64,000 nucleotides of DNA, taken from an uncultured Pseudomonadales bacterium (GTDB taxonomy: Bacteria; Patescibacteriota; Microgenomatia; UBA1400; PJMF01). The stretch lies in NCBI GenBank assembly GCA_964511345.1, contig CAZEEV010000001.1, forward strand, positions 220,342-284,341, written 5' to 3'. Below the pieces are notes generated by a model that had not been told where the DNA came from, made no database searches, and saw nothing but the letters and a program-made list of their open reading frames with translations. Shown here one piece after another: positions 20,548 through 61,649 of the stretch. Each line of letters starts with the position of its first letter. Position 1 is the first letter of the stretch. Position numbers and translations under genes: made by a program.

Positions 20548-20715
20548 TTAATTGCTCTTGCTACGCAAGATTAATCATCTGAGCGACCGAAGGGAGTCCA
20601 CTCTTCGAATACTAGGAGGGTGCTAGTCGCACTCTCCGTCGGAACCCTCTTTTCAGCTTTTTCTTTCACTCGCTCTTTCACATGATTGCTCTTGCTGCGC
20701 AAGAGTAATCATGTG
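20548..20715 (-). repeat. tRNA-Gly-associated repeat unit. It comprises a degenerate copy of the tRNA-Gly(CCC) T-arm/acceptor 3' segment carrying a 43-nt GC-rich insert, flanked by two copies of a roughly 30-bp hairpin-forming direct repeat.
   Basis: Minus strand ...GAGGGUUC[CGACGGAGAGUGCGACUAGCACCCUCCUAGUAUUCGAAGAGUG]GACUCCCUUCGGUCGCUCA; the authentic tRNA has GAGGGUUCGACUCCCUUCGGUCGCUCA. The direct repeats attgctcttgctacgcaagattaatcatctgagcgaccgaagggagtc (about 20548-20598) and attgctcttgctgcgcaagagtaatcatgtgagcgaccgaagggagtc (about 20686-20733) each form a long imperfect hairpin. Confidence 0.6.
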
Positions 20716-20786
20716 AGCGACCGAAGGGAGTCGAACCCTCACCTCAAACTTGGGAAGTTCGTATTCTACCGCTGAACTACGGTCGC
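20716..20786 (-). tRNA. tRNA-Gly (anticodon CCC)
   Basis: Acceptor GCGACCG/CGGTCGC, anticodon loop UUCCCAA, T arm GAGGG-TTCGACT-CCCTT, discriminator U. Confidence 0.85.
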
Positions 20787-20833
20787 TATTGATAAGTTTA
20801 GGAAGATTATAGCAAACTTTAAATACTTTAAAA

Positions 20834-21058
20834 TCAAGTGCTAGAAGATTCTTTTTTTGAAATCAGAGCTCTAATGGCAATTACTTGTAGATTTGTTTCT
20901 AGAGCTTCATCACTTAATCCACCTGCTAACTGTATTGAGTTAATTATTTCTCTTAATTCGTCTAGTGTTTTATTTCCAAAATTTTCTGATTCTTCAGTTA
21001 CTCTTTCTTTATAAGCTTTTTCAAGATATTCATCAGTTATAACCATGTTTTCCAGCAT
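20834..21058 (-). CDS. Hypothetical small acidic protein (74 aa)
   Basis: An ORF with a plausible upstream AT-rich promoter region and no recognisable motif. Confidence 0.3.
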   Translation of the reverse strand: MLENMVITDEYLEKAYKERVTEESENFGNKTLDELREIINSIQLAGGLSDEALETNLQVIAIRALISKKESSST

Positions 21059-21209
21059 TTGTGTCCTTTATTTAGTTTGGTTAACTATATATTAGTCTAT
21101 CAAACATATAAAAAATTACAATTATAAGTAATAAAAATACTAAAATTAATATTTTTATAAAGCTACTTGAATTGTTTTTGTCATAAACACAAAGTAGAAT
21201 TATGATGAG

Positions 21210-22115
21210 ATGGTGAAGTTACAATATTCTGAAAGAAAAAAAGGAATCGTAGCTCTTTTTGTATTAGTAATAATTTGGGGTATCCTTCCAATTATTCCAA
21301 GATTTTTAAGTATTGATTTTAAATTGTTTCAACAAGTCTATCTTCGCATGTCGATCGGCCTTATTTTGTCTTTGCTTATATTTTCAAAAAATATAAATCT
21401 TAAAAAAATAATACTAACACCAAAAAAAGATTTATTTTTAATTCTTTTTAGAGCTACTTTTTATTATCTAGTAGGAGTTGTTTTGAATACTCAAGCACTT
21501 CTGCTAACTAAAATCAGCAACGTCACTCTTATTGGGGCTCTACCCATCACCTCATTATTAGGTTTCATTGTTCTCAAAGAAAAGTTTTCAGTAAAAAAAT
21601 TTATATTAGTTTGCTTAGCATTTTTCGGAGTTTTAATTGTATCAATAAATAATTTTTCAAATTTTTCTTTTGGATACGGAGAATTGCTTGCCTTACTTTC
21701 TTCATTATGTATATCGCTAGCTCTAATATCTAGAAAATGGCAATCTAAATTTCTCAATGATCAAGAAACAACAATTCTAATTCTTTCAATTTCCGCTGTT
21801 GAAATTTTCTTCGCTTCAATAATTAAAGGAGAGGGCATTCCAAACACTACTTGGAGTTTTAGTATTGTTGGTTTTCTAGTTTTAGGTGGAATTTTAAATG
21901 CTGGAACAAGTTTCTTTTCAAATTATGGTTTTGCTCGTGTTGATGCAGTTTTAAGTGGAAATATATTGATGCTTGAACCTATTCTTGCTTCAATATTTGC
22001 TTTCATTATTTTTAATGAAATCCCAGTTCCCAAAGAAATCTTTGGAGGGATAATTATACTTTTCAGCGTTATTATGATGAATCGCATAGAAAACAAGCAA
22101 TTAAAAAATGCCTAA
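21210..22115 (+). CDS. EamA/DMT-family transporter (10 TM)
   Basis: 301 aa with two 5-TM halves typical of drug/metabolite transporter (EamA) repeats. Confidence 0.7.
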   Translation: MVKLQYSERKKGIVALFVLVIIWGILPIIPRFLSIDFKLFQQVYLRMSIGLILSLLIFSKNINLKKIILTPKKDLFLILFRATFYYLVGVVLNTQALLLTKISNVTLIGALPITSLLGFIVLKEKFSVKKFILVCLAFFGVLIVSINNFSNFSFGYGELLALLSSLCISLALISRKWQSKFLNDQETTILILSISAVEIFFASIIKGEGIPNTTWSFSIVGFLVLGGILNAGTSFFSNYGFARVDAVLSGNILMLEPILASIFAFIIFNEIPVPKEIFGGIIILFSVIMMNRIENKQLKNA

Positions 22116-22195
22116 TCGGGATCACCCTGCGGGTACTAGTCTGGCGCTTCGTAATTTAAAACATCAGTGCTCGCCATACGGCGCGAACATGGCTA
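22113..22195 (-). repeat. tRNA-Asp-associated repeat unit (partial tRNA-Asp T-arm copy plus a GC-rich insert)
   Basis: Minus strand ...CCAUGUUC[GCGCCGUAUGGCGAGCACUGAUGUUUUAAAUUACGAAGCGCCAGACUAGUACCCGCAGGGU]GAUCCCGAUUAGG, against authentic GGUUCGAUCCCGAUCGAGG. It shares ACGAAGCGC, CUAGU and CCCGCAGGG with the other units. Confidence 0.5.
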
Positions 22196-22218
22196 GATCT
22201 CTCAATGAGTTCTTAAAA

Positions 22219-22252
22219 TAAAAAATCCAGACCTTAGTCTGGAATTTTTATT
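22219..22252. terminator. Bidirectional intrinsic terminator between the EamA gene and tRNA-Asp
   Basis: aaaaaatCCAGACcttaGTCTGGaattttta: a 6-bp GC-containing stem flanked by an A-run and a T-run. Confidence 0.6.
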
Positions 22253-22255
22253 TTG

Positions 22256-22328
22256 CGACCTCGATCGGGATCGAACCGACGATCTTCTCCGTGACAGGGA
22301 GACATGTTAACCACTACACCACGAGGCC
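22256..22328 (-). tRNA. tRNA-Asp (anticodon GUC)
   Basis: Acceptor GGCCTCG/CGAGGTC, anticodon loop CUGUCAC, T arm GTCGG-TTCGATC-CCGAT, discriminator G. Confidence 0.9.
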
Positions 22329-22560
22329 TTTTTAAAGATTTAGAAGCTTTATTATATTTCAGACCCTCCTTTTTTGCAAAGCAAGAAAAAGGAGTTGGTA
22401 TGAAAGATGTTTTAGCGAATTTCAGGCCCTCATATTTCTTATTGCAGTCCGTCCTCCGTCTACACTTTGGACATTCCCTCGCAAAGCTCGGTCAAAAAAC
22501 GAGACAAATTTGCACAAAAATGCTACAATGAAAACTCATTAATATATAAAAAAGGAACCT

Positions 22561-23139
22561 ATGATTATCGCCTTAATTATTTTAGCTGTAGTTGTTCTCT
22601 ACGTAGTTGGAATTTACAATTCTCTACAAACTCTCAAGACTCAAATCAAAGCCAGTATTCAAGAAATTGGCAACCAATTAAAACGCCAAGCAGGCTTGAT
22701 TCCTAACTTAGAAGTTGCTGTCAAAGGTCAACTCAAACACGAAAAAGGCATTTACGAAATGCTTACTGATGCTCGCAAATCGGTCAATAAAGCTGACGCT
22801 TCCGGTTCAGCCAAAGATATTGATCAAGCAGTAGCTAAAATCCAAAATTTAATCCCACAAATTCAAGTGATGGTAGAAAGTAATCCAGAATTAAAAGCTA
22901 ACGAAGCTATTACCAAATTCATGGATGAACTAACTGATACTGCAGATAAATTGACTTACGCACGTCGTAGCGTCATTGATCTGTCTCAGAGTTTTAATGA
23001 AAAATTAGTAGTTTTCCCTTCTAATATTGTCGCTAATTTATTCGGCTTCAAAGAAGAAAAGGGCATTACCACTTCAACAACTGGCGCTCACATGGAAGTC
23101 AGTAGTGAAGAAGAGAAAAGTCCTAAAGTAAACCTCTAA
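22561..23139 (+). CDS. lemA: LemA family protein
   Basis: 192 aa. N-terminal TM followed by a coiled domain with the LemA signature (...YEMLTDAR...LTYARRS...). Confidence 0.8.
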   Translation: MIIALIILAVVVLYVVGIYNSLQTLKTQIKASIQEIGNQLKRQAGLIPNLEVAVKGQLKHEKGIYEMLTDARKSVNKADASGSAKDIDQAVAKIQNLIPQIQVMVESNPELKANEAITKFMDELTDTADKLTYARRSVIDLSQSFNEKLVVFPSNIVANLFGFKEEKGITTSTTGAHMEVSSEEEKSPKVNL

Positions 23140-23143
23140 GTTT

Positions 23144-24055
23144 ATGACTCACTATCAGTTAGTTGCGAAAAATAAGCAACGATCTTTTTTGATTATCTTC
23201 ATCTTTATTGCCTTCATCGTCGGAGCTTCTTATTTGATGGCAGAAGGCTTTGGTTATTCTTTAGATATCGTAGCCTGGGCTTTGATTTTTTCTGGAGCAA
23301 CTTCTTTCTTTAGTTATTTTTACTCAGATAAAATCATTCTTGGTATTTCTGGAGCTAAAGAGGCTAAGCGAAAGGAATTTTTTGACTTCTACACGGTCAC
23401 TGAAAACATTTGCCTAGGACAAAAAATGCCCATGCCTAAACTTTATGTGATTGAGGACAGTGCTATGAATGCTTTTGCCACTGGACGCAATCCAGAGCAC
23501 GCTGTGGTTTGCGCCACTACTGGTTTGTTAAGTCGTTTGAATCGCAGTGAAGTTGAGGCTGTCATTGCTCATGAAATGAGTCACGTTAAAAATTACGACA
23601 TTTTGCTCATGTCCGTCGTTTCTGTTTTAGTTGGCCTAATTGCTTTGTTAGCTGATTGGATGATGAGGATGTCTTTTTGGGGTGGGGGTAAAAAAAGAGA
23701 CAATAATGACAACGGTCAAATTGGAGCAATTATTGCTATCGTGGCAATAATTTTAGCGATTCTTTCACCAATTATTGCCCAACTAATTCAATTAGCCATT
23801 TCTCGCCGTCGCGAATTTTTAGCTGACGCTGGTAGTGCCAGCATGACTAAAAATCCACAAGGTCTCATTAAAGCTTTGAGTAAAATTAGTCAGGACAGCG
23901 AATCTTTGGAAGCTGCTAATAATGCCACTGCTCATTTGTATATCAGCAATCCACTAAAAAATGCCAAAGGAACCCATGCCTTTGCCAAGCTTTTTAATAC
24001 TCATCCACCAATTGAAGAAAGAATAAGGGCACTTCAAGAAATGCAAGCGATTTAA
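23144..24055 (+). CDS. htpX: M48-family zinc metalloprotease HtpX
   Basis: 303 aa. AHEMSHVKNYD contains HExxH; it has 4 TM helices and a second-half ...EFLAD... motif. Confidence 0.8.
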   Translation: MTHYQLVAKNKQRSFLIIFIFIAFIVGASYLMAEGFGYSLDIVAWALIFSGATSFFSYFYSDKIILGISGAKEAKRKEFFDFYTVTENICLGQKMPMPKLYVIEDSAMNAFATGRNPEHAVVCATTGLLSRLNRSEVEAVIAHEMSHVKNYDILLMSVVSVLVGLIALLADWMMRMSFWGGGKKRDNNDNGQIGAIIAIVAIILAILSPIIAQLIQLAISRRREFLADAGSASMTKNPQGLIKALSKISQDSESLEAANNATAHLYISNPLKNAKGTHAFAKLFNTHPPIEERIRALQEMQAI

Positions 24056-24083
24056 GCTTAAGAATGTGCTAAACTAAGCAACA

Positions 24084-24389
24084 ATGTCAGTCAACAATAC
24101 TCAAGTAAAACACATTGCCCAATTAGCTAATATTCCCATTAGTGAAGAGGAGAGTAATAAGCTTGCTCAAGATTTTAGTGAAACTCTCCAAGTAGTAGAC
24201 CAACTAAAAAAAGCTGACGTCTCTAAAGTAGAAATCACTCACCAGGTAACAGGCTTCAAAAATGTTTTCCGTGAAGATGTTGCTAAAGAAGATCAAAGCT
24301 TCACTCAAAAGGAAGCTTTGGCTAATGCTCATAAGACTTACAAAGGTTACTTTGTCGTGCCTTACGTTTTACAGAATAAGGACAATTAG
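24084..24389 (+). CDS. gatC: Asp/Glu-tRNA(Asn/Gln) amidotransferase subunit C
   Basis: 101 aa. Sits immediately upstream of gatA; ...VKHIAQLANIPISEEE... resembles GatC. Confidence 0.8.
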   Translation: MSVNNTQVKHIAQLANIPISEEESNKLAQDFSETLQVVDQLKKADVSKVEITHQVTGFKNVFREDVAKEDQSFTQKEALANAHKTYKGYFVVPYVLQNKDN

Positions 24390-24391
24390 TA

Positions 24392-25774
24392 ATGAAATTA
24401 AATGAATTAACTCTCAAAGAAAGTATTGACGCTCTAGATAAAAAAGAAGTCACTATTGAAGAAATTTATAGCGACTTAGACGCAGCCTACCAAAAGAAAA
24501 ACAAGGAATTAAATATTTATTTAAGTGTTGACACTGATGCCTTAAAAAAAGCTAAGGAAAACAAAGACAAACCACTTCGTGGTTTGCCAATCGCTGTTAA
24601 AGATAACTTTTGTACTAAAGGTCTACCAACTACAGCCTCATCTAAAGTTTTAGATGGCTTTTTACCTCAATATGAATCCACTGTTACCAAAAGATTAAAA
24701 GAAAATGGTGGTGTGATTTATGGCAAGACCAATATGGATGCTTGGGCTCATGGTTCTTCCACTGAAACCAGTGACTATGGTCGTACTCTTAATCCTCGTA
24801 ATCCTAAACATTTGCCAGGTGGATCCTCTGGTGGTAGTGCTGCCGCTATTGCTGCAGATCTTGCTATTTCTGCCATTGGTAGTGAAACGGCTGGCTCTAT
24901 TAGACAACCTGCTGCTTGGTGTGGAACGGTTGGTTTGAAACCAACTTATGGCAGAGTGAGTCGTTTTGGCGTGGTCGCCATGGCATCTTCTACTGATAGC
25001 CCAGGACCAATTGCTAAAACTGTTGAAGATGCTTGTATTTTACTTAATACTTTTGCTGGACCAGATGAAAAAGATGGCACCAGTAATAAAGAAAAATCTC
25101 CTGACTTTACTAGTTTCCTAAATCAAAGCATCAAGGGCATGAAAATTGGCGTTATCTATCAAGATGTTAAAGAAATAGCCGAAACTAATGAAAAATTGCT
25201 TAAGGAATTAGATATTCTCAAAGAAATGGGAGCTGAAATAGAAATTGTTCAGGCTATGGACCCTCATCATGCTATTGGTGTTTACACCGTGGTACAGAGG
25301 GCTGAAGTTAGTAGCAACTTAGCTCGCTATGACGGCATTCGCTACGGACATGATCGTTCTAATTTTGGCGATGAAGGCAAGAGACGTATTATGCTGGGCA
25401 CTTTTACTTTAACTAAAGGCTATGCTGACCGTTATTACAATTTGGCTCAAAAAGTCCGCACTCTTTATCTCAATGATTATAAAAAACTCTTTGCTAAATA
25501 TGATGTCTTAGTTTCACCAACTTCACCTTCTTTTGCTAAAGAAGTCGGCGCTTCTTTCAGTTCACCGATGTTTGGTGAATTAGAAGATATGTTACTTGAA
25601 GCTAGCTCAATCACTGGTTTACCAGGTGTAAACGTGCCTTTTTATCGTGACGAGAAAACCAATCTTTACCTTGGTGCTAATTTTATAGCTCCAATGTGGC
25701 GAGAAGATTTAGTCATTAAAGTTGCTGACGCTTTCGAAAAAAACAGCAAATGGAATTCATGGAGAAATAAATAA
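24392..25774 (+). CDS. gatA: Asp/Glu-tRNA(Asn/Gln) amidotransferase subunit A
   Basis: 460 aa. Amidase signature GGSSGGSAAAIAA and the catalytic Ser-cisSer-Lys context. Confidence 0.9.
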   Translation: MKLNELTLKESIDALDKKEVTIEEIYSDLDAAYQKKNKELNIYLSVDTDALKKAKENKDKPLRGLPIAVKDNFCTKGLPTTASSKVLDGFLPQYESTVTKRLKENGGVIYGKTNMDAWAHGSSTETSDYGRTLNPRNPKHLPGGSSGGSAAAIAADLAISAIGSETAGSIRQPAAWCGTVGLKPTYGRVSRFGVVAMASSTDSPGPIAKTVEDACILLNTFAGPDEKDGTSNKEKSPDFTSFLNQSIKGMKIGVIYQDVKEIAETNEKLLKELDILKEMGAEIEIVQAMDPHHAIGVYTVVQRAEVSSNLARYDGIRYGHDRSNFGDEGKRRIMLGTFTLTKGYADRYYNLAQKVRTLYLNDYKKLFAKYDVLVSPTSPSFAKEVGASFSSPMFGELEDMLLEASSITGLPGVNVPFYRDEKTNLYLGANFIAPMWREDLVIKVADAFEKNSKWNSWRNK

Positions 25775-27120
25775 TGCCATACAAACTCGTTTGTGGACTC
25801 GAAGTTCACGCTGAACTAAAAACTAAATCAAAAATGTTTTGTTCCTGCAAGAACGATCCTTTTGGTGCAGAACAACCTAACACTTATACTTGCCCAGTTT
25901 GTCTTGGCATGCCAGGAGCTCTGCCTGTTGCTAATCGTCAAGCGATTGAGTGGACCATTAAATTGGGTTTGGCACTTAATTGTAAAATTAATTTGTTCTC
26001 AAAATTCGATCGCAAAAATTATTTTTACCCAGATCTACCCAAAGGTTATCAGATTAGTCAGTATGACATTCCTTTTTGTTATGATGGGTATATTGACACC
26101 ACTGAAGGTCGCGTGCGTATTCATCGTATTCATCTCGAAGAAGACACTGCCAAGCTTTCACATCAGGAGATTGATTTAGATGGTGATGGCAAACTAGATA
26201 AAGCTACTTTGATCGATTTCAATCGTAGCAGTGTTCCTCTTGTAGAAATCGTCACTGAACCAGACATCATTTCAGCCATCCAGGCCAAAGAATATGGCCA
26301 AAAATTGCGCCAAATCATGCGTTATTTAGATATTGCCGACTGTGACATGGAGAAGGGTGGCATGCGTTTGGAGGCAAATATTTCTCTACGCAAAGAAGGT
26401 CATCAAGACCTTCCTAATTACAAAGTCGAATGCAAAAATATTAACTCTTTTAAATTTTTGGAAGCCGCCATTCATTACGAAATAACTCGCCAAACAGAAA
26501 TTTTGCAAAATGGTGAAACACCAGTCCAAGAAACTCGTGGTTATAATCCTAATACTAGTAAGACTTTTTCACAAAGAACTAAAGAAGATGCGGCTGATTA
26601 TCGCTATTTCCCAGATCCAGATTTGCCACCAATTGAATTTACGATAGAGGAAATTGAAAAAATTCGTCAAACAATACCTGAGTTACCAGAGTTAAAAGCC
26701 GTTCGTTTTGCTAGGGACTATGGTATCAATGAAAAAGTAGCCACAGAATTAGTCGCCAATAAACAAAAATCAGAATTTTTTGAAGAAATTTTGAAAATTG
26801 CTAAAAAAGAAAATTTAGATTGCCAAAAAATCATTAATAGCTTACTAAACAAAAAAATTGTTTTTGCTTTTAATGAAAAGCCAGAATCAATTCTTAATAA
26901 ATTTAAAGAGAATTCAAGTAGTGAAAACATTGACCAAGCAGAGTTACAAAAAGTCATTCAAGAAGTCTTACACCAAAATCAAGATGCTGTCACAAAATAC
27001 AAGGCAGGAAAAACTGCAGTTATCGGTTTCTTAATTGGGCAAGTTATGCGTCAATTAAATAAAAAAATCGACGTCAATTTGGTCAAAAAAGAATTGATTA
27101 TTTTCCTCGAAAAAAATTGA
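25774..27120 (+). CDS. gatB: Asp/Glu-tRNA(Asn/Gln) amidotransferase subunit B
   Basis: 448 aa. MPYKLVCGLEVHAELKTKSKMFCSC matches the GatB N-terminus. Confidence 0.9.
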   Translation: MPYKLVCGLEVHAELKTKSKMFCSCKNDPFGAEQPNTYTCPVCLGMPGALPVANRQAIEWTIKLGLALNCKINLFSKFDRKNYFYPDLPKGYQISQYDIPFCYDGYIDTTEGRVRIHRIHLEEDTAKLSHQEIDLDGDGKLDKATLIDFNRSSVPLVEIVTEPDIISAIQAKEYGQKLRQIMRYLDIADCDMEKGGMRLEANISLRKEGHQDLPNYKVECKNINSFKFLEAAIHYEITRQTEILQNGETPVQETRGYNPNTSKTFSQRTKEDAADYRYFPDPDLPPIEFTIEEIEKIRQTIPELPELKAVRFARDYGINEKVATELVANKQKSEFFEEILKIAKKENLDCQKIINSLLNKKIVFAFNEKPESILNKFKENSSSENIDQAELQKVIQEVLHQNQDAVTKYKAGKTAVIGFLIGQVMRQLNKKIDVNLVKKELIIFLEKN

Positions 27121-27185
27121 CAAATCGCCATAAACCAATTATGATCCACTTTTATATATAGCTTTTGCTATAAGAAAGGTCGATT

Positions 27186-27482
27186 ATGACTGAAGGCTTA
27201 CCAAAAGTTGATCAATCAGAGCTTTCTTCCCCCCAAGATAGAGATGAAGATATCCTTGCAAATCATACCTATGAATTATGGGGCCGAGCTGTGTTGTTAT
27301 GTCCTTATTTCAAAAGATTAAACGATGATGAAGCCAACCAATTAATGTTAACTATTCATAGATTTGGAGAAAGTTCCATACAAGTGAATAATATGCTTTT
27401 GCAACTTGATAAAAAATACAACCCTGAAGAACCCGAGCCACAACTTTCAGAGGGCATGCAAGAGCTTTTGAATCACGACTAA
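27186..27482 (+). CDS. Hypothetical small acidic protein (98 aa)
   Basis: An ORF between gatB and dnaE with no recognisable motif. Confidence 0.3.
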   Translation: MTEGLPKVDQSELSSPQDRDEDILANHTYELWGRAVLLCPYFKRLNDDEANQLMLTIHRFGESSIQVNNMLLQLDKKYNPEEPEPQLSEGMQELLNHD

Positions 27483-44425: not shown

Positions 44426-45079
44426 ATGTCCCAAGAATTTCTGCAGGTTTTATCGGTTAATAACCAAAAAATCATTAAAAAACTTAACACTCCGGAACTA
44501 GTCCAAGATTTTGTCGATCAAAAAGTTATTTACGATACAAAGCGTGAAGACCGAACTATCGAAGAAATCCTAAATGACGGGCGGGGTGAATGTTATGGTG
44601 GAGCTTTACTTGCTGCCACTTGCTTAATGGTGGCTAATCTTGAGGTTTTCTTAGTTAGAATTGAAGCCAGAGGAGGAGATGAGGAACACATTCTTTGCGT
44701 ATATAAACAAAACAACTATTTTGGTTCAATCGCTCAAAGTAAATTTTTGGGCTTAAAAGACAGAAAACCAATTTATAAAACCATTAGAGATTTAGTAGTT
44801 AGTTATCAAGAATTTTATTTTGGTTTTGATGGCAGGTACACTCTCTTGTCTTTTCATCAACCACTAAATCTTAAAAAATACCAATTTACTTGGCTTAGTC
44901 AAAGAGAAAGTGTTTTGCAAATAGCCAAAGATTTAATCTCCGCCCCAATTGAAGAAATTGCTAAATTAGATGATCCTTATTTTCTAGTAAATCCCAAACG
45001 CTACTGGAACGAAATTCTCTACATTCCTGAGTGGGCAAAAATTCCAGAAAGTTATTTACGAGTAAAAAAAGACGCATAA
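44426..45079 (+). CDS. Hypothetical protein with conserved Cys/His (possible papain-fold or transglutaminase-like peptidase)
   Basis: 217 aa. GECYGGALLAATCL then ...EEHILCVY... places a Cys ahead of a His as in papain-like folds. Followed by a terminator aaaaagacgcataattgcgtcttttt. Confidence 0.3.
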   Translation: MSQEFLQVLSVNNQKIIKKLNTPELVQDFVDQKVIYDTKREDRTIEEILNDGRGECYGGALLAATCLMVANLEVFLVRIEARGGDEEHILCVYKQNNYFGSIAQSKFLGLKDRKPIYKTIRDLVVSYQEFYFGFDGRYTLLSFHQPLNLKKYQFTWLSQRESVLQIAKDLISAPIEEIAKLDDPYFLVNPKRYWNEILYIPEWAKIPESYLRVKKDA

Positions 45080-45098
45080 TTGCGTCTTTTTCTTATAT

Positions 45099-45195
45099 GT
45101 GAGTCCGGTGGAGCTCCACTCTTCGAGTGCTAGTCACGCGCTTCGTAAATAAAAGGCACTCAAAAATTCAATCTCGCTTGACGGTGGAACCCATA
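45099..45195 (-). repeat. tRNA-Lys-associated repeat unit (partial tRNA-Lys 3' copy plus an insert)
   Basis: Minus strand ...AUGGGUUC[CACCGUCAAGCGAGAUUGAAUUUUUGAGUGCCUUUUAUUUACGAAGCGCGUGACUAGCACUCGAAGAGUG]GAGCUCCACCGGACUCA, against authentic GUGGGUUCGAGUCCCACCGGACUCA. Confidence 0.6.
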
Positions 45196-45264
45196 TATTT
45201 GGCTTTTCATCTATACCGGCTCCATTTATAAAAAAACACGCTTACAGCGTGATTTTTTATAAAG

Positions 45265-45338
45265 TGAGTCCGGTGGGACTCGAACCCACGACGCACAGCT
45301 TAAAAGGCTGTCGCTCTAACCGACTGAGCTACGGACCC
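45265..45338 (-). tRNA. tRNA-Lys (anticodon UUU)
   Basis: Acceptor GGGTCCG/CGGACTC, anticodon loop CUUUUAA, T arm GTGGG-TTCGAGT-CCCAC, discriminator A. A terminator hairpin (cacgctgtaagcgtg + U-run) follows at 45231-45260. Confidence 0.85.
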
Positions 45339-48816: not shown

Positions 48817-49641
48817 ATGCTTGAAAATGGGCAAGAGATAGAGAGTACTGAATCCATACTTGAAGAAGTTTGGCTAACTCGTGGCACAAACAACAAACTA
48901 GCAGAAAAAGTTAGACTGCCTAATAAAATGAAGTCTGGGTATGGATTTCCCACATTTTTATCACTAAAGGAATCAACTTTGCATTTAGATCGTTTTGATA
49001 ATTATTTTGGAGAAGGCAATGAAAGAATTAGAATTTTTTGTTTTGGCTTGTTTGAAGATCGCACGATAGTTAATAAAAATACAAATATTAAACCAATCGG
49101 CTATTTATTTTTACAAGAAGTTGGTGGCAACAAGCCTCATATTGAATGTAGTGATAACTGGCTGCTTTCTATGATTACACACGTTACTAATCCAGACGGC
49201 ACAAATGGAATAGATCCATTGTTTTCGATAATAGAAGATGACTACCACAATTCACCTCATTCTAGGAAAATTCCTTTAGCAGCAATTCGAGTAGGTTCTG
49301 ACACTACATATAGAGAATCTAGAAATAAAACTATTGCAAAATTAGAAAAAAATGGCACAGCAAAACTCATAGAAATGTTAGAAGAAATGAAAAATAACCC
49401 GAGAAACATAAACGGTGGTGGAAATAATGAGAGGTTAGAAGAATTTCAACATACTCATCTCGGATTTGGCAAACTTATGTTATCTGGAGCGATTGATGTT
49501 TGTCGAAGAATTGGTTATGAAAAACTTTATATAAAAGGGGCAAATGAAAACTCACAAAAATTAGTGGCAAAGTCTTCATTTCCATATGTAAAATCAAGGG
49601 ATGGTGGATTTACAACTTTGATTATAGATACAAAGAAGTGA
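48817..49641 (+). CDS. Hypothetical protein with a C-terminal GNAT-like acetyltransferase core
   Basis: 274 aa. HLGFGKLMLSGAIDVCRRIGYEKLYIKGANENSQKL resembles GNAT motif A (acetyl-CoA P-loop and surrounding helix). The N-terminal 180 aa are unassigned. Confidence 0.35.
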   Translation: MLENGQEIESTESILEEVWLTRGTNNKLAEKVRLPNKMKSGYGFPTFLSLKESTLHLDRFDNYFGEGNERIRIFCFGLFEDRTIVNKNTNIKPIGYLFLQEVGGNKPHIECSDNWLLSMITHVTNPDGTNGIDPLFSIIEDDYHNSPHSRKIPLAAIRVGSDTTYRESRNKTIAKLEKNGTAKLIEMLEEMKNNPRNINGGGNNERLEEFQHTHLGFGKLMLSGAIDVCRRIGYEKLYIKGANENSQKLVAKSSFPYVKSRDGGFTTLIIDTKK

Positions 49642-49972: not shown

Positions 49973-50100
49973 GTGAAAGCGGGTGTCGCCCTGCGGGCAC
50001 TAGGCGGGTGTATCACGCTCTTTTGCCGTCGCCCTCTTCGAGGACTAGGCGGGCGCATCGCGCTTCGCTTGATTTGCGACTCGCCGTCGCCAGAATCTAG
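49973..50100 (-). repeat. tRNA-Gly(TCC)-associated repeat unit (partial tRNA 3' copy with a roughly 106-nt GC-rich insert containing two tandem sub-repeats)
   Basis: Minus strand GAUUCUGG[CGACGGCGAGUCGC...GCGCCCGCCUAGUCCUCGAAGAGGGCGACGG...ACACCCGCCUAGUGCCCGCAGGGCGA]CACCCGCUUUCA, against authentic CCGAUUCUGGUCACCCGCUCA. Confidence 0.6.
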
Positions 50101-50172
50101 ACTTAAAAAATTCCGTTTTTGCTTTACCACTTCATTTTAAAAATAGCCCATTTCTGGGCTATTTTTAAAATG

Positions 50173-50243
50173 AGCGGGTGACCAGAATCGGACTGGCTTC
50201 TTCTCCTTGGAAGGGAGACATACTACCGGTGTACTACACCCGC
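50173..50243 (-). tRNA. tRNA-Gly (anticodon UCC)
   Basis: Acceptor GCGGGTG/CACCCGC, anticodon loop CUUCCAA, T arm GCCAG-TCCGATT-CTGGT, discriminator U. The T-loop is slightly atypical (C at the usual U55). A terminator hairpin agcccatttctgggct follows at 50145-50160. Confidence 0.75.
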
Positions 50244-52045: not shown

Positions 52046-52183
52046 ATTTCCTTCAATCAATCCAGACTTGACTATCTTATAATAATTGCTATAATACCTA
52101 TTAACTCAGAAGGTTTACTCCTCACCAGGATCTACGTTCTGAGATCAAAAAATCCCGCTTCTGGCGGGTTTTTTTGTAGATTG

Positions 52184-52264
52184 TGCCGAGGAGAGGACTT
52201 GAACCTCCATGGATTACTCCACACGCTCCTAAAACGTGCGCGTCTACCATTTCGCCACCCCGGC
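52184..52264 (-). tRNA. tRNA-Leu (anticodon UAG), long variable arm
   Basis: Acceptor GCCGGGG/CCTCGGC, anticodon loop UUUAGGA, a 13-nt variable arm, T arm GGAGG-TTCAAGT-CCTCT, discriminator A. A terminator cccgccagaagcggg plus a U-run follows at 52150-52180. Confidence 0.85.
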
Positions 52265-52946: not shown

Positions 52947-52961
52947 CTAGCGTAAAAATGT

Positions 52962-55113: not shown

Positions 55114-55133
55114 TTGATTAAAGAAAGGTCATT

Positions 55134-56207: not shown

Positions 56208-56232
56208 TTGGCAATTTTATATACTCTTAGAC

Positions 56233-57489
56233 ATGGCAACAATCTATGCAATGCAAGCACGAGAGATTCTCGATGGTCGTGGTTGGCCCACAATTGAGCT
56301 TGTTTTGTGGTTAGATAATGGTTTTTCCACAATTACCTCTGTGCCATCAGCGATTTCCAGGAGTGAACACGATTCTTTGGAATTAAGAGATTTAGAGAAA
56401 AGAGCTGGCGGTCTTGGCGTACAAAAAGCCATTAACAATATTAATCAAATTATTGCTCCACAAATGATTGGCAAGGACGTCCTCAAACAAAGAGATATTG
56501 ACCAATTCTTGATCGACCTTGATGGCACGACTAATAAAAAAAAGCTTGGTTCTAACGCTATTTTAGCCGTTTCTCAAGCCGTGCTCAAAGCTGGAGCTTT
56601 GAGTGTTGGTTTACCACTTTATCAATATATTCAAAAAAAATATCAATTAATTAGTGAATTTAATTTACCCAATTGTATTATTACCGCTTTGGACGGAGGC
56701 ATTTATGGAGGTAAGAACTTAGACTTCCGCGAATTCTTTATTATTCCCGCCAGTCACATGTCCATAGATAAATCGATTGAAATGGCCATTACTTTGAAAC
56801 AAAAGATTGAAGATTTATTAATTAGTAAAGGCGCAATTCATTCTGTTGGCTCAAATGGGGGATTTAGCCCTAGTCTATACAAAAACACTGATGCATTCGA
56901 ATTATTGATTGAGGCTATCAAACAGAGTAGCTATAACTTTGCTCAAGATTTGTTCTTTGGTCTCAATAGCGCCGCTTATGATATTTATGAAGCTTCAAAA
57001 TATCGCTTACGTGACAATAATGAAGGCATGAGTGCTAATGAATTGATTGCCCTCTATAAAAAAATGAGGGAAAACTACAAACTAATTTATATCGAAGATC
57101 CTTTCGTTGAGAATGATGATGAAAAATGGCAAGAGCTAGTGAGAGAAATTGGTAAAACCACAACCATCGCTGGCTGCAATAACGTTTCTTCTCGAGCTTC
57201 GCTCATTAAGAATGGCATTAAAGATCAAAGCTTTAATGCTGTCGTTATCAAGCCAAAACATCTGGGTACTATCAGTGAAGTCATGGAAAGCGTTAAGTTA
57301 GTTAAAGATTCAAAAATGGATTTAATTATTTCGCAAAGTGGAGGTGAAACCAATGAAACTTTCATTGTCGATTTAGCAGTAGCAGTAGGAGCTAATTATG
57401 TGAAGCTAGGACCTCTTAACAGAGGAGAGCGCATCAGCAAGTATAATCGTTTACTAGAAATTAATCGCGAAATTCAGACTCCAACATAG
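56233..57489 (+). CDS. eno: Enolase
   Basis: 418 aa. AREILDGRGWPTIEL N-terminus and C-terminal SQSGGETNETFIVDLAVA...KLGPLNRGERISKYNRLLEI. Confidence 0.85.
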   Translation: MATIYAMQAREILDGRGWPTIELVLWLDNGFSTITSVPSAISRSEHDSLELRDLEKRAGGLGVQKAINNINQIIAPQMIGKDVLKQRDIDQFLIDLDGTTNKKKLGSNAILAVSQAVLKAGALSVGLPLYQYIQKKYQLISEFNLPNCIITALDGGIYGGKNLDFREFFIIPASHMSIDKSIEMAITLKQKIEDLLISKGAIHSVGSNGGFSPSLYKNTDAFELLIEAIKQSSYNFAQDLFFGLNSAAYDIYEASKYRLRDNNEGMSANELIALYKKMRENYKLIYIEDPFVENDDEKWQELVREIGKTTTIAGCNNVSSRASLIKNGIKDQSFNAVVIKPKHLGTISEVMESVKLVKDSKMDLIISQSGGETNETFIVDLAVAVGANYVKLGPLNRGERISKYNRLLEINREIQTPT

Positions 57490-57598
57490 TTTCAGCAAGT
57501 TTGATCTAAAAACCGAAATTTACCCGTTGACCTTTGCCTTTTTTTCGTTTATTTTATGGTTAATCTTCGTTATTTAATTTAAAAGCAAAGGAACTTCT

Positions 57599-58219
57599 AT
57601 GGCCATTACTCTCTATAAAAGACAGCGTCAAATCATTGATTTTATCGCGCAATATGTACAAAAAAATGGTTTTTCACCAACTCTCAAAGAGATTGCTGAA
57701 TCAATTAATGTCTCTTCTTTAGCTACTGTCCATGAGCACTTACAGGCTCTTGAACGCAAGAAGGTCATTCGTAAACACGAGGGAGCAGTGCGTGGCATTG
57801 AGCTAGTTGATCGTACTTTCTTAAATATTACTGACAGCGTTGATTTGCCATTTTTAGGATTCATTGCTGCCGGTTCACCAATTGAACCTCATAGTGATCC
57901 TAACGCTAGTTTCAAAGTTTCTCCAGAGATGATTACTGGCAAGAAGCGCGCTTATGTGTTACAGGTTCGTGGTAAATCCATGATTGAAGACCATATTGAT
58001 GATGGTGATTATGTAGTAATTGAAGAAACTCCTGAAGTAAATAATGGGGACATTGTCGTCGCTCTATTAGATAATGGCCTGGCCACTTTGAAAAGATTTT
58101 ACAAAGAAGTCACTCGCATTCGCTTGGAGCCAGCCAACTCCAGCATGAGCCCAATTTATGCGACCAATGTTCAAATTCAAGGCAGAGTAGTAGGACTAAT
58201 TCGTAAGTTTAGGTACTAA
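57599..58219 (+). CDS. lexA: LexA repressor (S24 peptidase)
   Basis: 206 aa. N-terminal wHTH (LKEIAESINVSSLATVHEHLQALERKKVIRK) and catalytic Ser/Lys (VRGKSMIED...LKR). Confidence 0.85.
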   Translation: MAITLYKRQRQIIDFIAQYVQKNGFSPTLKEIAESINVSSLATVHEHLQALERKKVIRKHEGAVRGIELVDRTFLNITDSVDLPFLGFIAAGSPIEPHSDPNASFKVSPEMITGKKRAYVLQVRGKSMIEDHIDDGDYVVIEETPEVNNGDIVVALLDNGLATLKRFYKEVTRIRLEPANSSMSPIYATNVQIQGRVVGLIRKFRY

Positions 58220-58221
58220 AC

Positions 58222-58776
58222 TTAGTTTTTAAACTCTATTTCTTTAGTTTTGAGTTCTTTGTTAACCCAAGTTCTTAAGGCGTACAAATAATCTGAAACT
58301 CTGTTAACAAATTGCAGAATTACTTCACGCACATCTCTTTCATTGTCTAGAGAAACCATTCTTCTCTCTAAGCGACGGCAAATAGTGCGAGATAAATCTA
58401 AAAATGCGGCAAGTTCTGAACCGCCAGGCAAAACAAATTTACTATGCCAATCTTGTCCCAATTCTTCTTGTAAAAAATCTATTTCTTTTTCTAAAAGCTT
58501 CACAAATTTTGCGTCCAAACGCACTTTGGGAGAAGCTGCTATTTCTGCACCCAATTTAAAAAGTTCATTTTGTAAATCAAGTAAAAAAGCATATTCCTGG
58601 AGCCAAATTTTCGTGCACCCAGACTGTTTTAGTTTAAGCACTACTATTCCCAAACTTGCATTAAATTCATCAAGCGTACCTAAAACTTCAAATACTAGGC
58701 TATTTTTTGGCAAACGCTCACCATTGATTAAAGCTGTTTTACCTTGATCTCCCATTTTGGTATAAATCTTTTTCAT
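58222..58776 (-). CDS. ATP:cob(I)alamin adenosyltransferase, PduO-type (MMAB family)
   Basis: 184 aa. MKKIYTKMGDQGKTAL...VFEVLGTLDEFNASLG matches the Cob_adeno_trans N-terminus. Confidence 0.7.
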   Translation of the reverse strand: MKKIYTKMGDQGKTALINGERLPKNSLVFEVLGTLDEFNASLGIVVLKLKQSGCTKIWLQEYAFLLDLQNELFKLGAEIAASPKVRLDAKFVKLLEKEIDFLQEELGQDWHSKFVLPGGSELAAFLDLSRTICRRLERRMVSLDNERDVREVILQFVNRVSDYLYALRTWVNKELKTKEIEFKN

Positions 58777-58845
58777 ACTCTCATTCTAGCATTAGAATCT
58801 GCCACTACCCAAATCATCAGCTCTCGCTTAGAATAAAATCCCGTA

Positions 58846-60564
58846 ATGATAGACATACGCGGGTTCCTCAAACAAACCAATAGTAAACATTCCACTAAGT
58901 ACGTTTTTGTCTCTGGTGGTGTCCTTTCAGGTTTGGGTAAAGGGGTGACTGCCGCTTCTTTGGGGGTTCTACTTAAAGAACAAGGTTACGATGTCACTAA
59001 TATTAAATGTGAAAATTATCTCAATTTAGATTCTGGCAATATTAATCCTATTGAACATGGAGATGTTTTTCTTTGTGAAGATGGTTTGGAAGCAGATTTG
59101 GATCTAGGCTCTTATGAAAGATTTTTAGGTAGAGAAGTCGGATATAAAAATTTCACTACCATGGGTCAAATTTACAGTACTGTTATTGAGCGCACTAAAA
59201 ACCTGGAATACAACGGAGCAACAGTTGACGCCATTCCCTATGTGCCAGAAGAAGTTATCCGTCGAATTCAAGAGGCATCCGTGGGTCACGATATTGTGTT
59301 AATTGAATTAGGTGGAACAGCTGGTGAATATCAAAATATTATTTACTACGAAGCTTACCGTATCATGAAGATGACTTTACCCAAGGATGTCATCCTTCTG
59401 CATGTTACCTATTTCCCAGCTCCTTCTCACATCAATGAATTGAAATCTAAACCCACTCAACTTTCAGTCAAATCCCTGAATTCTATGGGTATTCAACCAG
59501 ACTTTATTGTAGGTAGAGGAGAATTGGAGATTGATGAAAAACGCAAAGAAAAAGTGGCTTATTTTTGCACCATGAATCAGGAAGACATCATTTCTAACCC
59601 AGATTGTAAATCAATTTATGAAATCCCATTAGTTTTCAACAAACAACAATTTAGTCAAAAAGTACTTAAAAAGCTGGGTTTAAAATCTAGAAAAATTGCT
59701 TTGACCGATTGGCAAGCAATGGTACAAAACATCTATGCTGAGAAAGATAAAAAGGTCAAAATCGGCATTATAGCTAAGTATATAGCTACTGGTGATTATG
59801 AATTAAAAGACTCTTATACATCTCTTCTAGAATCCATTAACCATTCTGCCTGGCATGAGAAAATTGATGTAGAAATAGTTTTCATCAATGCTGAAAGTTT
59901 AGAAAAAAAAGATAAAAAAACTTTGTCTGACTTACAAAAAGTGGACGGCATCATTGTGCCAATCGGTTGGGGCAGTCGTGGCGTAGAAGGCAAAATAGAG
60001 GCTATTCGCTATGCCAGAGAAAATAAAATACCTTATTTGGGCTTATGTTATGGCATGCAATTAGCCTCAGTGGAATTTGCCCGTCATATGGCTGATTTAA
60101 GTGATGCAAACACGCAGGAAGTGGATCCAAATACCAAAAACCCAATCATTCACGCCATTCCTTTTGAAGACAAATATCAAAAAATCAAAGGCAACGGCGC
60201 CAGTATGAGACTCGGAGCTTATGATTGTATTCTCAAACCCAATACCTTGGCTCACGAAATTTATAAAAAGCACAATGCTTTTAAAGATTCAAGAAAAAAT
60301 CTTATCTCTGAACGTCATCGTCATCGCTATGAGTTTAATAATGATTACCGCCAAATCTTAGAAGAAAAGGGCTTTGTCATCTCTGGAACCAGCCCGGATA
60401 ATTTCTTTGTAGAAATGATTGAGCTACCCAAAGAAACCCACCCCTTCTTCTTAGCCACTCAAGCTCATCCAGAATACAAATCTGCACCCCTTAAACCACA
60501 CCCTATTTTTATTGAATACTTACGCACTATTTGGGAAGAAAAAAACAAGAAAAGCCAAAGTTAA
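58846..60564 (+). CDS. pyrG: CTP synthase
   Basis: 572 aa. KYVFVSGGVLSGLGKG and the glutamine amidotransferase triad region (GLCYGMQ). Confidence 0.9.
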   Translation: MIDIRGFLKQTNSKHSTKYVFVSGGVLSGLGKGVTAASLGVLLKEQGYDVTNIKCENYLNLDSGNINPIEHGDVFLCEDGLEADLDLGSYERFLGREVGYKNFTTMGQIYSTVIERTKNLEYNGATVDAIPYVPEEVIRRIQEASVGHDIVLIELGGTAGEYQNIIYYEAYRIMKMTLPKDVILLHVTYFPAPSHINELKSKPTQLSVKSLNSMGIQPDFIVGRGELEIDEKRKEKVAYFCTMNQEDIISNPDCKSIYEIPLVFNKQQFSQKVLKKLGLKSRKIALTDWQAMVQNIYAEKDKKVKIGIIAKYIATGDYELKDSYTSLLESINHSAWHEKIDVEIVFINAESLEKKDKKTLSDLQKVDGIIVPIGWGSRGVEGKIEAIRYARENKIPYLGLCYGMQLASVEFARHMADLSDANTQEVDPNTKNPIIHAIPFEDKYQKIKGNGASMRLGAYDCILKPNTLAHEIYKKHNAFKDSRKNLISERHRHRYEFNNDYRQILEEKGFVISGTSPDNFFVEMIELPKETHPFFLATQAHPEYKSAPLKPHPIFIEYLRTIWEEKNKKSQS

Positions 60565-60625
60565 TATTCTCTCTTATAAACCCATTGTACTTTTATGACT
60601 TCCTTTGGTACAATACTCGCTTGTT

Positions 60626-60979
60626 ATGGCACAGAATTTTACTTACAACGATCAAGAAGTTAATGTTGGTGACACCGTTCGTGTCCACCAAGAAATTAGT
60701 GAAGGCAAGAAAACCAGAGTTCAGGTTTTTGAGGGCTTAGTTATTGCTGTCAAAAATCGTGAAGTCAACAAAACTTTTACCGTTCGCAAAATTGCTACTG
60801 GTGGCATTGGAGTAGAGAAAATCTTTCCTCTAATGATCCCTAGTATCAAAAAAATTGAAGTTAAACGTCGTGGCGAAGTCAAGAGAAGTAAACTATACTA
60901 CTTACGTGCCAAAGTCGGTAAAGCAGCTAGTAGAGTTAAAGAAAAAAGTCTTTTCACCGAGACAAAAAAAGTTCCCTAA
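60626..60979 (+). CDS. rplS: 50S ribosomal protein L19 (bL19)
   Basis: Start taken at MAQNF... (the ORF track begins 7 codons earlier). ...[19 protein letters not shown]...[16 protein letters not shown] is conserved bL19. Confidence 0.9.
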
Positions 60980-61331
60980 TTTTTCCAAAGGAATACAAGC
61001 AGAAAAAATCGCCTTAACCTTTCTTCTTAATAAAGGTTATTCACTCTTGGAAAAAAATATTAGAACAGCCAACTCGGAAGTAGATTTAGTCATGCTTGAT
61101 GAAGAATTTGACGAGATTGTCTTTGTTGAAGTCAAATATAGGGAAACACGTAGCTACGGAGATGGCAGTCAAGCTGTTGATCAAAGAAAGCTCAACAGCA
61201 TAATTAAAGTCGCCAATAGCTATTTAAGAAAAAAGCAGTTTAAAAAAAGCTATAGATTTGATATCATATCAGTCTCTGGAAATTTAGAACGACCAGAAAT
61301 ACGGCACTTTGAGAATATTACTTGGCTTTAG
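60855..61331 (+). CDS. yraN: YraN-family (UPF0102) predicted endonuclease; start uncertain
   Basis: ...[49 protein letters not shown]... matches YraN. The only in-frame ATG overlaps rplS by 125 nt, so the true start may be a non-canonical codon near 60980. Confidence 0.5.
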
Positions 61332-61345
61332 GCCTTTGATAAAAA

Positions 61346-61417
61346 GGCCCCATCGTCTAGTGGTTAGGACATCGGGTTTTCATCCCGGTAACTGGGGTCC
61401 GATTCCCCATGGGGTCA
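61346..61417 (+). tRNA. tRNA-Glu (anticodon UUC)
   Basis: Acceptor GGCCCCA/TGGGGTC, anticodon loop UUUUCAU, T arm TGGGG-TCCGATT-CCCCA, discriminator A. Confidence 0.85.
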
Positions 61418-61423
61418 CAGCGT

Positions 61424-61456
61424 AAAAAAGAGTGGATTTGTCCACTCTTTTTTTTG
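61424..61456 (+). terminator. Intrinsic terminator after tRNA-Glu
   Basis: aaaaaaGAGTGGAtttgTCCACTCtttttttt. Confidence 0.7.
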
Positions 61457-61627
61457 CTTTGAACTCGTAATAGGATCAGCCTTTTTAGGTCCAGACAATT
61501 GAGCTAATAACGCACACGAGCTTAAGCGAGGAGCATTATGTTCAATTATATGAGGAAGCGCGGTGAGAACAAGCAAAATAACTGTAGTGATTAGCGGAAG
61601 TTGTGCTTGTGGAGCGAGCAAGCTCGT

Positions 61628-61649
61628 ATTCCCCATGGGGAGGGTCACA
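61628..61649 (+). repeat. Partial copy of the tRNA-Glu T-arm/3' end within the 5' UTR of the downstream small gene
   Basis: AUUCCCCAUGGGG-AGG-GUCACA, against authentic GAUUCCCCAUGGGGUCACA. It is preceded by the GAGCAAGCUCG hairpin. Confidence 0.5.

Follow-up and report, generated by a model that had tools for sequence, protein, structure and literature searches.

The DNA considered here is a 64-kb stretch of chromosome (the window, by which we mean the whole stretch that was analysed) with a GC content of 36.5% and a high density of housekeeping genes. It contains seven tRNA genes, all single and dispersed, which ARAGORN and Rfam placed where an earlier note on this DNA had put them. Five of the seven are followed, about 90 nucleotides (nt) downstream, by a partial copy of the gene's own 3' end that is split by a GC-rich insert. 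The inserts are small hairpin elements, named here E1 (43-76 nt, two helices) and E2 (about 135 nt). All five tRNA-linked units listed in the earlier note were found by direct inspection, BLAST and a search with a covariance model of E1 (R1, see below).

Split copies of tRNA 3' ends in the window

At tRNA-Gly(CCC) (intact gene at 20715-20786, minus strand, by ARAGORN and Rfam) the unit lies on the strand of the gene and starts with the 5' strand of a pseudo T-stem followed by TTC (GAGGGTTC, 20642-20649), identical to the tRNA at 8/8 positions. A truncated E1 of 43 nt follows (20599-20641; 30 bits and E 2.8e-5 with the E1 model), located between C56 and G57 of the pseudo-copy, which retains both helices (GGAG-A-GUG / CAC-C-CUCC) but has lost the internal loop. 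The unit is completed by a copy of tRNA positions 57-76 together with the hairpin that follows the tRNA (20551-20598; 19/19 identity). As a BLAST match the duplication measures 48 nt at 93.8% identity (E 1.8e-15) and extends 29 nt beyond the end of the tRNA. The hairpin itself, of 13 bp and without a U-run (GATTACTCTTGC-GCA-GCAAGAGCAATC, minus strand), stands after both the real tRNA (20678-20716) and the partial copy (20551-20579) and is missing from the relative L035.

The unit of tRNA-Lys(UUU) (intact gene at 45264-45338, minus strand) is also on the minus strand and is separated from its gene by a terminator at 45237-45251, while a second terminator (45066-45091, minus strand) lies after the unit. 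Between the two are found a pseudo T-stem and TTC (TGGGTTC, 45187-45193), a full-length E1 of 70 nt (45117-45186) and a copy of tRNA-Lys positions 57-76 (45099-45116) with 16/18 identity and a 13-nt exact run. This E1, again between C56 and G57, is made up of the prefix CACC, the helix P1 (GUCAAGCG/CGCGUGAC), CUAGC and the hairpin P2 (CACUC-GAA-GAGUG), and scores 79.8 bits as one of the copies included in the model. A terminator also lies between gene and unit at tRNA-Asp(GUC) (intact gene at 22255-22328, intrinsic terminator at 22226-22243, both on the minus strand), where the 5' flank consists of GTTC only (22185-22188, minus strand) and precedes a full-length E1 (22124-22184, minus strand; 59 bits, likewise a copy included in the model) composed of the prefix GCGCC, P1 (GUAUGGCG/CGCCAGAC), CUAGU and P2 (ACCC-GCA-GGGU). 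It is followed by a degenerate copy of the 3' half of the T-loop, the T-stem and the acceptor (22111-22123, minus strand; GATCCCGATTAGG compared with GATCCCGATCGAGG), and the match of this 3' flank, GATCCCGAT(TAGG), is by itself too short for significance.

Two copies of E1 are present at tRNA-Gly(UCC) (intact gene at 50172-50243, minus strand, by ARAGORN). The unit, on the same strand, opens with a copy of the 3' half of the T-loop and the 3' strand of the T-stem (GATTCTGG, 50090-50097), continues with E1 copy a (50026-50089; 35.1 bits, E 2e-6, outside the model) and a truncated copy b (49986-50025; 15.9 bits, E 0.05), and closes with a remnant of the acceptor 3' strand (CACCCGCT, 49978-49985). 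Copy a has CGAC on either side, as at the tRNA-Pro genes of other genomes, and copy b consists of CUAGU and the hairpin GCCC-GCA-GGGC. The insert totals 104 nt.

On the plus strand, tRNA-Glu(UUC) (intact gene at 61346-61418, by ARAGORN) is followed by a pseudo T-stem plus TCC (AGGTCC, 61487-61492), matching the unusual TCC T-loop of this tRNA, by an E2 element of 135 nt with three hairpins (61493-61627), recognised by its similarity to an element of the relative L027, and by a copy of tRNA-Glu positions 58-76 that includes a 13-nt exact run and a 3-nt insertion, AGG (61628-61649). E2 thus has AGGTCC on one side and (G)ATTCCCC on the other, which places it in the T-loop. The AGG, which had been taken for the whole of the Glu insert, is a minor indel, and the real interruption is E2. 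The two remaining genes, tRNA-Thr(CGU) (20458-20531, minus strand, by ARAGORN) and tRNA-Leu(UAG) (52183-52264, minus strand), lack a unit, as first described and as now confirmed by the E1 model search, although the relative L027 carries one at tRNA-Leu.

At Gly(CCC), Lys and Glu, the three loci with long matches, the 3' flank fits its own tRNA best (Gly(CCC) 18 compared with at most 12 for others, Lys 16 with at most 10, Glu 13 with at most 9). At Asp and Gly(UCC) the flank identity amounts to just 4-13 nt, the matches are weak when taken alone, and neither locus would stand by itself. Several lines of evidence argue that the units as a group are not due to chance. The inserts have a GC content of 44-66%, compared with 36.5% for the window. 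The motif CGAAGCGC-N2-12-CTAGY-N-CYCGMAGRG, common to several of the loci, occurs three times in the window compared with none in 100 shuffles. R1 was built from 12 copies of E1, two of which are the Lys and Asp units of the window, and it recovered both of the units left out of its building, Gly(UCC)-a (E 2e-6) and Gly(CCC) (E 3e-5). In the window its matches are confined to the downstream sides of tRNA-Gly(CCC), Asp, Lys and Gly(UCC) and share the strand of the tRNA in every case, with nothing significant elsewhere (128 kb counting both strands). Finally, of 30 tRNAs from the window and related loci, six had a same-strand recurrence of their last 16 nt (at least 13/16) in the 400 nt that follow, compared with 0/90 controls from three control regions.

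E1 and E2 as structured elements associated with tRNAs

From its 5' end, E1 consists of a prefix of 4-5 nt, C(G/A)(C/A)(C/A), and the 5' strand of P1, G-NNN-A-GCG, followed by AG, an AT-rich variable loop of 11-37 nt, CGAAG and the 3' strand of P1, CGC-N-NNN-C, and then by UAGY, the hairpin P2 of 4-5 bp with a GAA or GCA triloop, and one purine. The helices obtained with RNAalifold are the two proposed, with 98.6% of cells paired. Four pairs show compensatory change, a result reached by none of 500 shuffles, and the compensatory variants of P1 include UCA/UGA, UCG/CGA, GCG/CGC, GCA/UGC and CCA/UGG. Both helices are supported by these changes. The presence of U-G pairs indicates that the tRNA-sense strand is the one that folds. 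E2 is about 80% identical over about 100 nt (E 1.7e-17) to the element that L027 has in the T-loop of its pseudo tRNA-Gly(UCC) copy; its hairpin 1 covaries, and it contains a partial E1-like core (9.9 bits). With Rfam 15 the gathering score was reached in the window by the seven tRNAs only. The families covered include tRNA-like RNAs, RtT, self-cleaving ribozymes and group I/II introns. E1 had no Rfam match at E<=10 in a focused scan and none across seven E1-carrying loci, and E2 gave only weak matches driven by terminators.

Every copy is oriented with its tRNA, and in nearly all of them the left flank of the element is YTC or TCC. When E1 was examined for features of a miniature inverted-repeat transposable element, the strands of P1 were found to be inverted repeats of which only the 5' strand is near an element end. 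In having hairpins 0-6 nt from both ends, the elements show traits of the IS200/IS605 or repetitive extragenic palindrome (REP) type, which is a resemblance only.

A number of other identities for the elements were tried and rejected. Ribozymes of the hepatitis delta virus (HDV) type have a G-U wobble at the first base pair, whereas the first base at the tRNA/E1 junction forms a G-C pair, and no model of a self-cleaving ribozyme (HDV- or hatchet-like) matched there. The strands of a possible kink-turn at GCGAG/CGAAGCGC are off consensus by inspection. E1 resembles an integron attC site in having a stem, a mismatch, a second stem and a variable loop in succession, but it lacks the conserved sequence of the R box. 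A small open reading frame (ORF) through E1 is open in L015 but, by inspection, closed after 8 codons at the window Lys unit. The differences between the two Gly(CCC) copies are not adenine-specific, as would be expected for the template and variable repeats of a diversity-generating retroelement.

A scan for the E1 motif with one genome per species found it in several metagenome-assembled genomes (MAGs), including the complete TM6-labelled CP011212, and a scan of metagenomes added four more loci; the carriers beyond the window include MAGs labelled TM6 or Pacebacteria. In low-GC MAGs the motif lies just 3' of a tRNA or tRNA fragment, on the tRNA strand, and the motif matches in GC-rich genomes that have no tRNA nearby are taken to be chance. 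When R1 was applied to 79 kb of loci from other genomes, every significant match adjoined a tRNA or tRNA fragment on the same strand, so that the association of E1 with tRNA sequence is exclusive in this material.

At most of these other loci E1 begins right at the 3' terminus of a functional tRNA gene. The arrangement is ...CUUC-CGCC|GUCAAGCG...GAGGG|CGCCA at tRNA-Ser(CGA), tRNA-Ser(UGA) and one cut-off tRNA, and ...CUCUC-CGAC|GGCGAGCG...|CGACA at tRNA-Pro(UGG) and tRNA-Pro(CGG). The 3'-end copies are thus flanked by 4-nt direct repeats of the tRNA terminus (CGCC or CGAC), whereas the copies in T-loops have no such repeats. At tRNA-Ser and tRNA-Pro, in the other genomes, the 3'-end copies precede the tRNA terminator and must therefore be co-transcribed with the tRNA. 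These genes encode N73-CC or N73-C, with the element next. In the window none of the seven tRNA genes encodes CCA, and CA comes right after the discriminator base in six of the seven (CU in tRNA-Lys).

Sites of the T-loop type, with the element inside a partial copy of the neighbouring tRNA, are also found in L015, L025 and L027. The break falls at C56|G57 in the window units of Gly(CCC), Asp, Lys and Glu, in L015 and L025 and in the Gly(UCC) copy of L027, and at the T-stem/acceptor junction (64|65) in the window Gly(UCC) unit and in the X2 piece of L015. Every copy is therefore broken at one of the two kinds of position that had been noticed at the outset. Both window Gly units have the prefix CGAC, which is the terminus of tRNA-Pro, and Gly(UCC)-a has it as a suffix as well. 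Since the copies of the T-loop type keep the prefix of a 3'-end site, they derive from 3'-end copies plus a few flanking bases.

Measured from the real to the pseudo C56, the distances in the window are 91, 88, 95, 92 and 92 nt, and those in other genomes are 99, 89, 90, 100 and 77 nt, the last in L026. Nine of the ten offsets are therefore within 88-100 nt; a further one of 161 nt equals 89 + 72 and is found where a 3'-end E1 intervenes. The five window pseudo-copies all start 65-74 nt from the 3' end of the tRNA, which replaces the range of 60-170 nt given previously. The spacers have only a weak purine-rich motif in common. They show no residual similarity to the tRNA 5' part when compared with shuffles, and a decayed full tandem duplicate of the tRNA was rejected on this ground. 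At Gly(CCC) the duplication reaches into local downstream sequence, and elsewhere the identity stops 0-8 nt past the gene.

Two further arrangements of E1 were observed. At 4432-4586 of L018 (minus strand) two tandem copies enclose a 13-nt tRNA-like 3' fragment, CTGTCCCTCCGCA, and no tRNA gene was detected nearby. In L021 and L022 a second, weak E1-like match (13.7 bits, E 0.19) lies about 140 nt past the E1 of tRNA-Ser(CGA), with a T-loop offset by eye of about 157 nt, of which 74 nt is the 3'-end E1, in an arrangement resembling L016.

Variation among relatives

An orthologous tRNA-Leu/tRNA-Pro(UGG) locus has E1 in L016 (CCGAC[E1]CGACAAAC) and an empty site in L025 (CCGACAAAT). Three relatives, L026, L027 and L028, are syntenic with the window in the order YgjP ... 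Na/Ca exchanger - AsnRS-like - elongation factor P (EF-P) - tRNA-Lys ... GreA - LysRS - SerRS - SecA, and their EF-P is 89, 78 and 76% identical to that of the window. In none of the three did R1 find E1 at Lys or Gly(UCC). L026 has at Lys a 17/17 copy of the tRNA-Lys 3' end after a degenerate E1-like sequence. L027 has E2 in the pseudo T-loop after tRNA-Gly(UCC) and, at Leu, a third element, a 45-nt double hairpin with the motif ACGAAGC, which splits a copy of tRNA-Leu. L028 is empty at Lys, Gly(UCC) and Leu. The gap between tRNA-Gly(CCC) and tRNA-Thr is 24 nt in L035 (alr identity 74%) compared with 183 nt in the window, and since the bases beside tRNA-Thr are orthologous in L035, the window Gly(CCC) unit represents an insertion or duplication. 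Comparison with sister genomes, which the earlier note had recommended, thus found the units absent, degenerate or replaced at the syntenic Lys, Gly(UCC) and Gly(CCC) sites. Synteny was also sought by way of the EamA gene, but its homologues proved not to be syntenic.

Within one MAG the E1 copies at tRNA-Ser(UGA) and tRNA-Ser(CGA) are identical at 72/76 positions, including 25/28 in the fast-evolving loop, whereas the loop identity between orthologous tRNA-Ser(CGA) copies of other MAGs is just 12-15/28. The element has therefore been copied recently within this genome. Presence and absence between relatives together with near-identical paralogues are signatures of mobile or actively copied DNA and not of a conserved host RNA.

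The gene content right after tRNA-Lys and tRNA-Gly(UCC) differs in each genome compared, although the flanking genes are syntenic. The variable stretches are 44426-45079 and 48817-49641 in the window, with counterparts in L026, L027 and L028, and examples of their content are ORFs of unknown function, a phosphoribosyltransferase with a HAD protein, and a znuABC/fur cluster; the two tRNA genes look like hot spots of gene gain and loss. In addition, the contigs of L033 (alr 88%) and L034 (alr 83%) end inside tRNA-Thr or at its start, just at the place expected for the Gly(CCC) unit, and the repeats may be breaking short-read assemblies.

Of the housekeeping genes, the window carries ileS, the ftsZ/ftsA/mur cluster, truB, alr, gatAB, dnaE and secA as well as serS, lysS, efp, eno, pyrG and rplS. 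The nearest homologues of its EF-P and alanine racemase are in MAGs with the submitter labels Pacebacteria, Microgenomates or Patescibacteria, and the host is an uncultured bacterium, probably with a small genome. Convergent with tRNA-Leu there is a candidate small RNA gene (52060-52180, plus strand) with a putative promoter TTGACT-17-TATAAT, read from the complement of ...GTCAA...ATTATAAG...TATTATAGC. Its hairpin, CTCAGAAGGTTT..CCAGGATCTACGTTCTGAG, is nearly invariant across four genomes and without significant Rfam match, and its end would be a bidirectional terminator common to it and tRNA-Leu.

Origin of the units

We propose, with moderate confidence, that E1 and E2 are non-autonomous, hairpin-dependent mobile repeats that target the 3' regions of tRNAs, and that the window copies are orphan and partly decayed. 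The elements would be small non-coding hairpin repeats, mobile now or recently in a small-genome uncultured lineage, that land only in the tRNA 3' region and in tRNA orientation. Two sites would be tolerated. One would be directly at the 3' terminus of a working tRNA, where the first four bases of the element repeat the last of the tRNA (CGCC or CGAC), so that the gene stays intact. The other would be inside a non-functional duplicate extending from the T-arm to the 3' end, about 90 nt past the real T-loop, with the element between C56 and G57 or at the T-stem/acceptor junction. The window has the second kind only, and its copies are orphans without a recombinase gene in the vicinity, shielded by terminators and in part truncated. 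On this proposal the elements would be inserted by an enzyme acting in trans, which would recognise folded single-stranded DNA or the T-arm hairpin, and the duplication of the tRNA segment would have been made by, or selected with, the insertion, letting an essential tRNA survive.

Of the three options offered in the earlier note, the miniature tRNA-targeting element and the REP-like element are both favoured, since the hairpins covary, occur only at tRNA-derived sequence, are polymorphic between syntenic relatives and have nearly identical paralogues in one genome. The remaining option, a structured tRNA-like non-coding RNA, is not supported for the window copies, which are behind terminators at Lys and Asp, are absent or replaced in relatives and are in several cases truncated. 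Miniature hairpin repeats are well known and include REP/REPIN sequences, IS200/IS605-derived palindrome-associated elements, Rickettsia palindromic elements, mitochondrial GC clusters and double-hairpin elements, some of which are inserted beside or within RNA genes. Insertion of the IS200/IS605 type is strand-specific, takes place on the 3' side of a short conserved motif and leaves no target duplication. E1 and E2 are like the miniature repeats in being small, non-coding and GC-rich in an AT-rich genome, with subterminal hairpins, and in being intergenic, variable between relatives and copied within a genome. They are unlike them in their strict association with tRNA-derived sequence, the exact T-loop breakpoint, the duplication of the local tRNA 3' end, the 4-nt repeats of E1 at 3'-end sites, and in that no Y1 (TnpA/RAYT) transposase was found in the 64-kb window.

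Several observations weigh against this proposal. A scan of all window ORFs of at least 120 amino acids with Pfam and NCBIfam returned housekeeping genes only, with no transposase, integrase, reverse transcriptase or TnpB-like gene, and no such mobility gene was seen beside any copy, so that mobility is deduced from the comparative data only. Compensatory changes between apparently orthologous tRNA-Ser(CGA) copies could mean selection on the RNA at the level of the host. No pseudo-copy without an element was found among about 10, which argues for duplication and insertion being coupled and not two independent steps. Furthermore, no one known mechanism explains together the pattern of repeats (4 nt at 3'-end sites and none at T-loop sites), the two-sided match of the pseudo-copy to the local tRNA, and a near-constant offset. 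On these grounds the insertion seems to be coupled to the duplication of the tRNA 3' segment, and the process seems to be a measured one.

Integration targeted to tRNAs classically leaves direct repeats of tRNA 3' ends, and a T-loop sublocation class of tRNA-targeted integrative elements was reportedly distinguished by Williams in 2002. The units could accordingly be viewed as scars of such elements, the partial copy being attR, the spacer the remainder of a deleted island, and E1 and E2 arm sequences. As between attL and attR, the tRNA 3' segment is duplicated from the T-loop on, in the same orientation and ending 0-8 nt past the gene, with the gene restored upstream, a displaced copy downstream and a new terminator after the intact tRNA, and the window, L026, L027 and L028 have different gene contents immediately after tRNA-Lys and tRNA-Gly(UCC). 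The breakpoints in the T-loop likewise bear out part of the idea, raised at the outset, of an integrase crossover there. However, the element lies inside the repeat, between the T-stem 5' strand with TTC and G57, and not beside an uninterrupted core, and every copy has that core split at C56|G57 or 64|65. Only about 65 nt are enclosed by the repeats, at a near-constant offset, which random deletion of islands would not yield, the variable genes are outside the segment bounded by the repeats, and in the Gly(CCC) unit the copy takes in local downstream sequence (94% identity). No integrase gene was found among the window ORFs scanned, and no island-sized DNA lies between the repeats. Neither is there any match in phage or viral collections, since BLAST of GenBank phages gave none and motif scans of IMG/VR gave nothing or chance matches in GC-rich coding DNA. 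We therefore regard integrase scars as unlikely.

It is also conceivable, though quite improbable in our judgement, that E1 is a host-selected RNA module of tRNA precursors, acting as a 3'-trailer processing or stability signal or as an rtT-like small RNA that tRNA-type processing would release at the tRNA-like 3' end, with the window units functional but displaced. The covarying helices with U-G pairs on the transcribed strand would fit such a role, as would the position of E1 between tRNA and terminator at tRNA-Ser and tRNA-Pro and the precedent of the Escherichia coli rtT RNA, which comes from comparable repeats ending in a tRNA 3' copy. For the window copies, the sequence does not appear to support a host non-coding RNA function, because terminators stand between most units and their tRNA, no sigma-70-like promoter was found upstream of the unit at the two loci scanned (Lys and Asp), and the syntenic relatives either lack the units or have degenerate ones or another family in their place. 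Moreover, Gly(CCC) and Gly(UCC)-b have lost internal conserved motifs, the pseudo-copy at Asp no longer maintains its T-stem pairing, and Rfam gives no match. The possibility of relics of RNA-guided homing, in which the element would be the scaffold and the adjoining 17-20 nt of tRNA copy the guide, in the style of TnpB omega-RNA or Cas12 crRNA, with the universal T-loop GGTTC as adjacent motif and insertion at a fixed distance, we consider very remote. It would account for a structured element with a short hairpin followed by 17-25 nt of tRNA from G57 on, for the conserved left flank (TTC or TCC), for T-loop sites without target duplication and for the pseudo T-loop offset of 88-100 nt in 9/10 cases and 77 in L026. 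Yet no effector gene (TnpB, IscB, Cas12k, Tns) was found in the window or beside any copy, the candidate guides at Lys, Asp and Glu deviate by mismatches or indels, such a system would also target the intact tRNA, and five independent homing elements in 64 kb are implausible. Known RNA-guided scaffolds are, moreover, much longer than E1.

The statement that no described system has such a layout was too strong, since the repeats of the E. coli tyrT/tyrV-rttR region are comparable; PMC3318445 cites Bosl and Kersten (1991) for these tyrT-tyrV-rttR repeats and the rtT RNA. In E. coli K-12 the repeats contain exact 19-nt copies of the tRNA-Tyr 3' end, from A58 in the T-loop to CCA, every 178 nt downstream. 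A direct comparison of layouts shows that in rtT-type tRNA-operon repeats, as here, the unit ends in a tRNA 3' copy starting in the T-loop, and that both systems have same-orientation partial copies of their own tRNA 3' end reaching to the 3' terminus. The E. coli repeats differ in forming a tandem array at one tRNA, without a T-stem 5' remnant and without a GC-rich hairpin insert, whereas the window units occur at many different tRNAs, each once, at about 91 nt, and have no sequence or Rfam similarity to RtT. Self-splicing tRNA introns are similarly structured insertions in tRNA genes of small-genome uncultured bacteria. They interrupt functional tRNAs at position 35/36, whereas E1 and E2 are far smaller, give no group I match and are found either past the gene or in the T-loop of fragments that do not function.

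There appears to be no earlier description of the element families, of their exact breakpoint in the T-loop or of the fixed offset; limited literature searches found none, and Rfam has no match. More speculatively, and in our view with only a small chance of being correct, the units may reflect an undescribed tRNA-directed mechanism combining recognition of the T-arm, a break at C56|G57 and duplication from the T-loop to the 3' end about 91 nt away, so that an essential single-copy tRNA survives. The structured element with its tRNA-derived flank might then serve as a targeting RNA or as a folded DNA site.

As a clue to the mechanism, the near-constant offset of 91 nt is concrete and can be tested, and the R1 model provides a direct handle for a genome-wide census. 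In practice the elements produce pseudo-tRNA fragments, and probably assembly breaks, beside the tRNA genes of MAGs, and they mark tRNA-linked hot spots of gene gain and loss. If they are active, they would represent a new route by which selfish DNA exploits the tRNA T-arm, the most conserved sequence of a genome, without being lethal to a host with a single copy of each tRNA, and they would bear on how the tiny genomes of uncultured bacteria still turn over.

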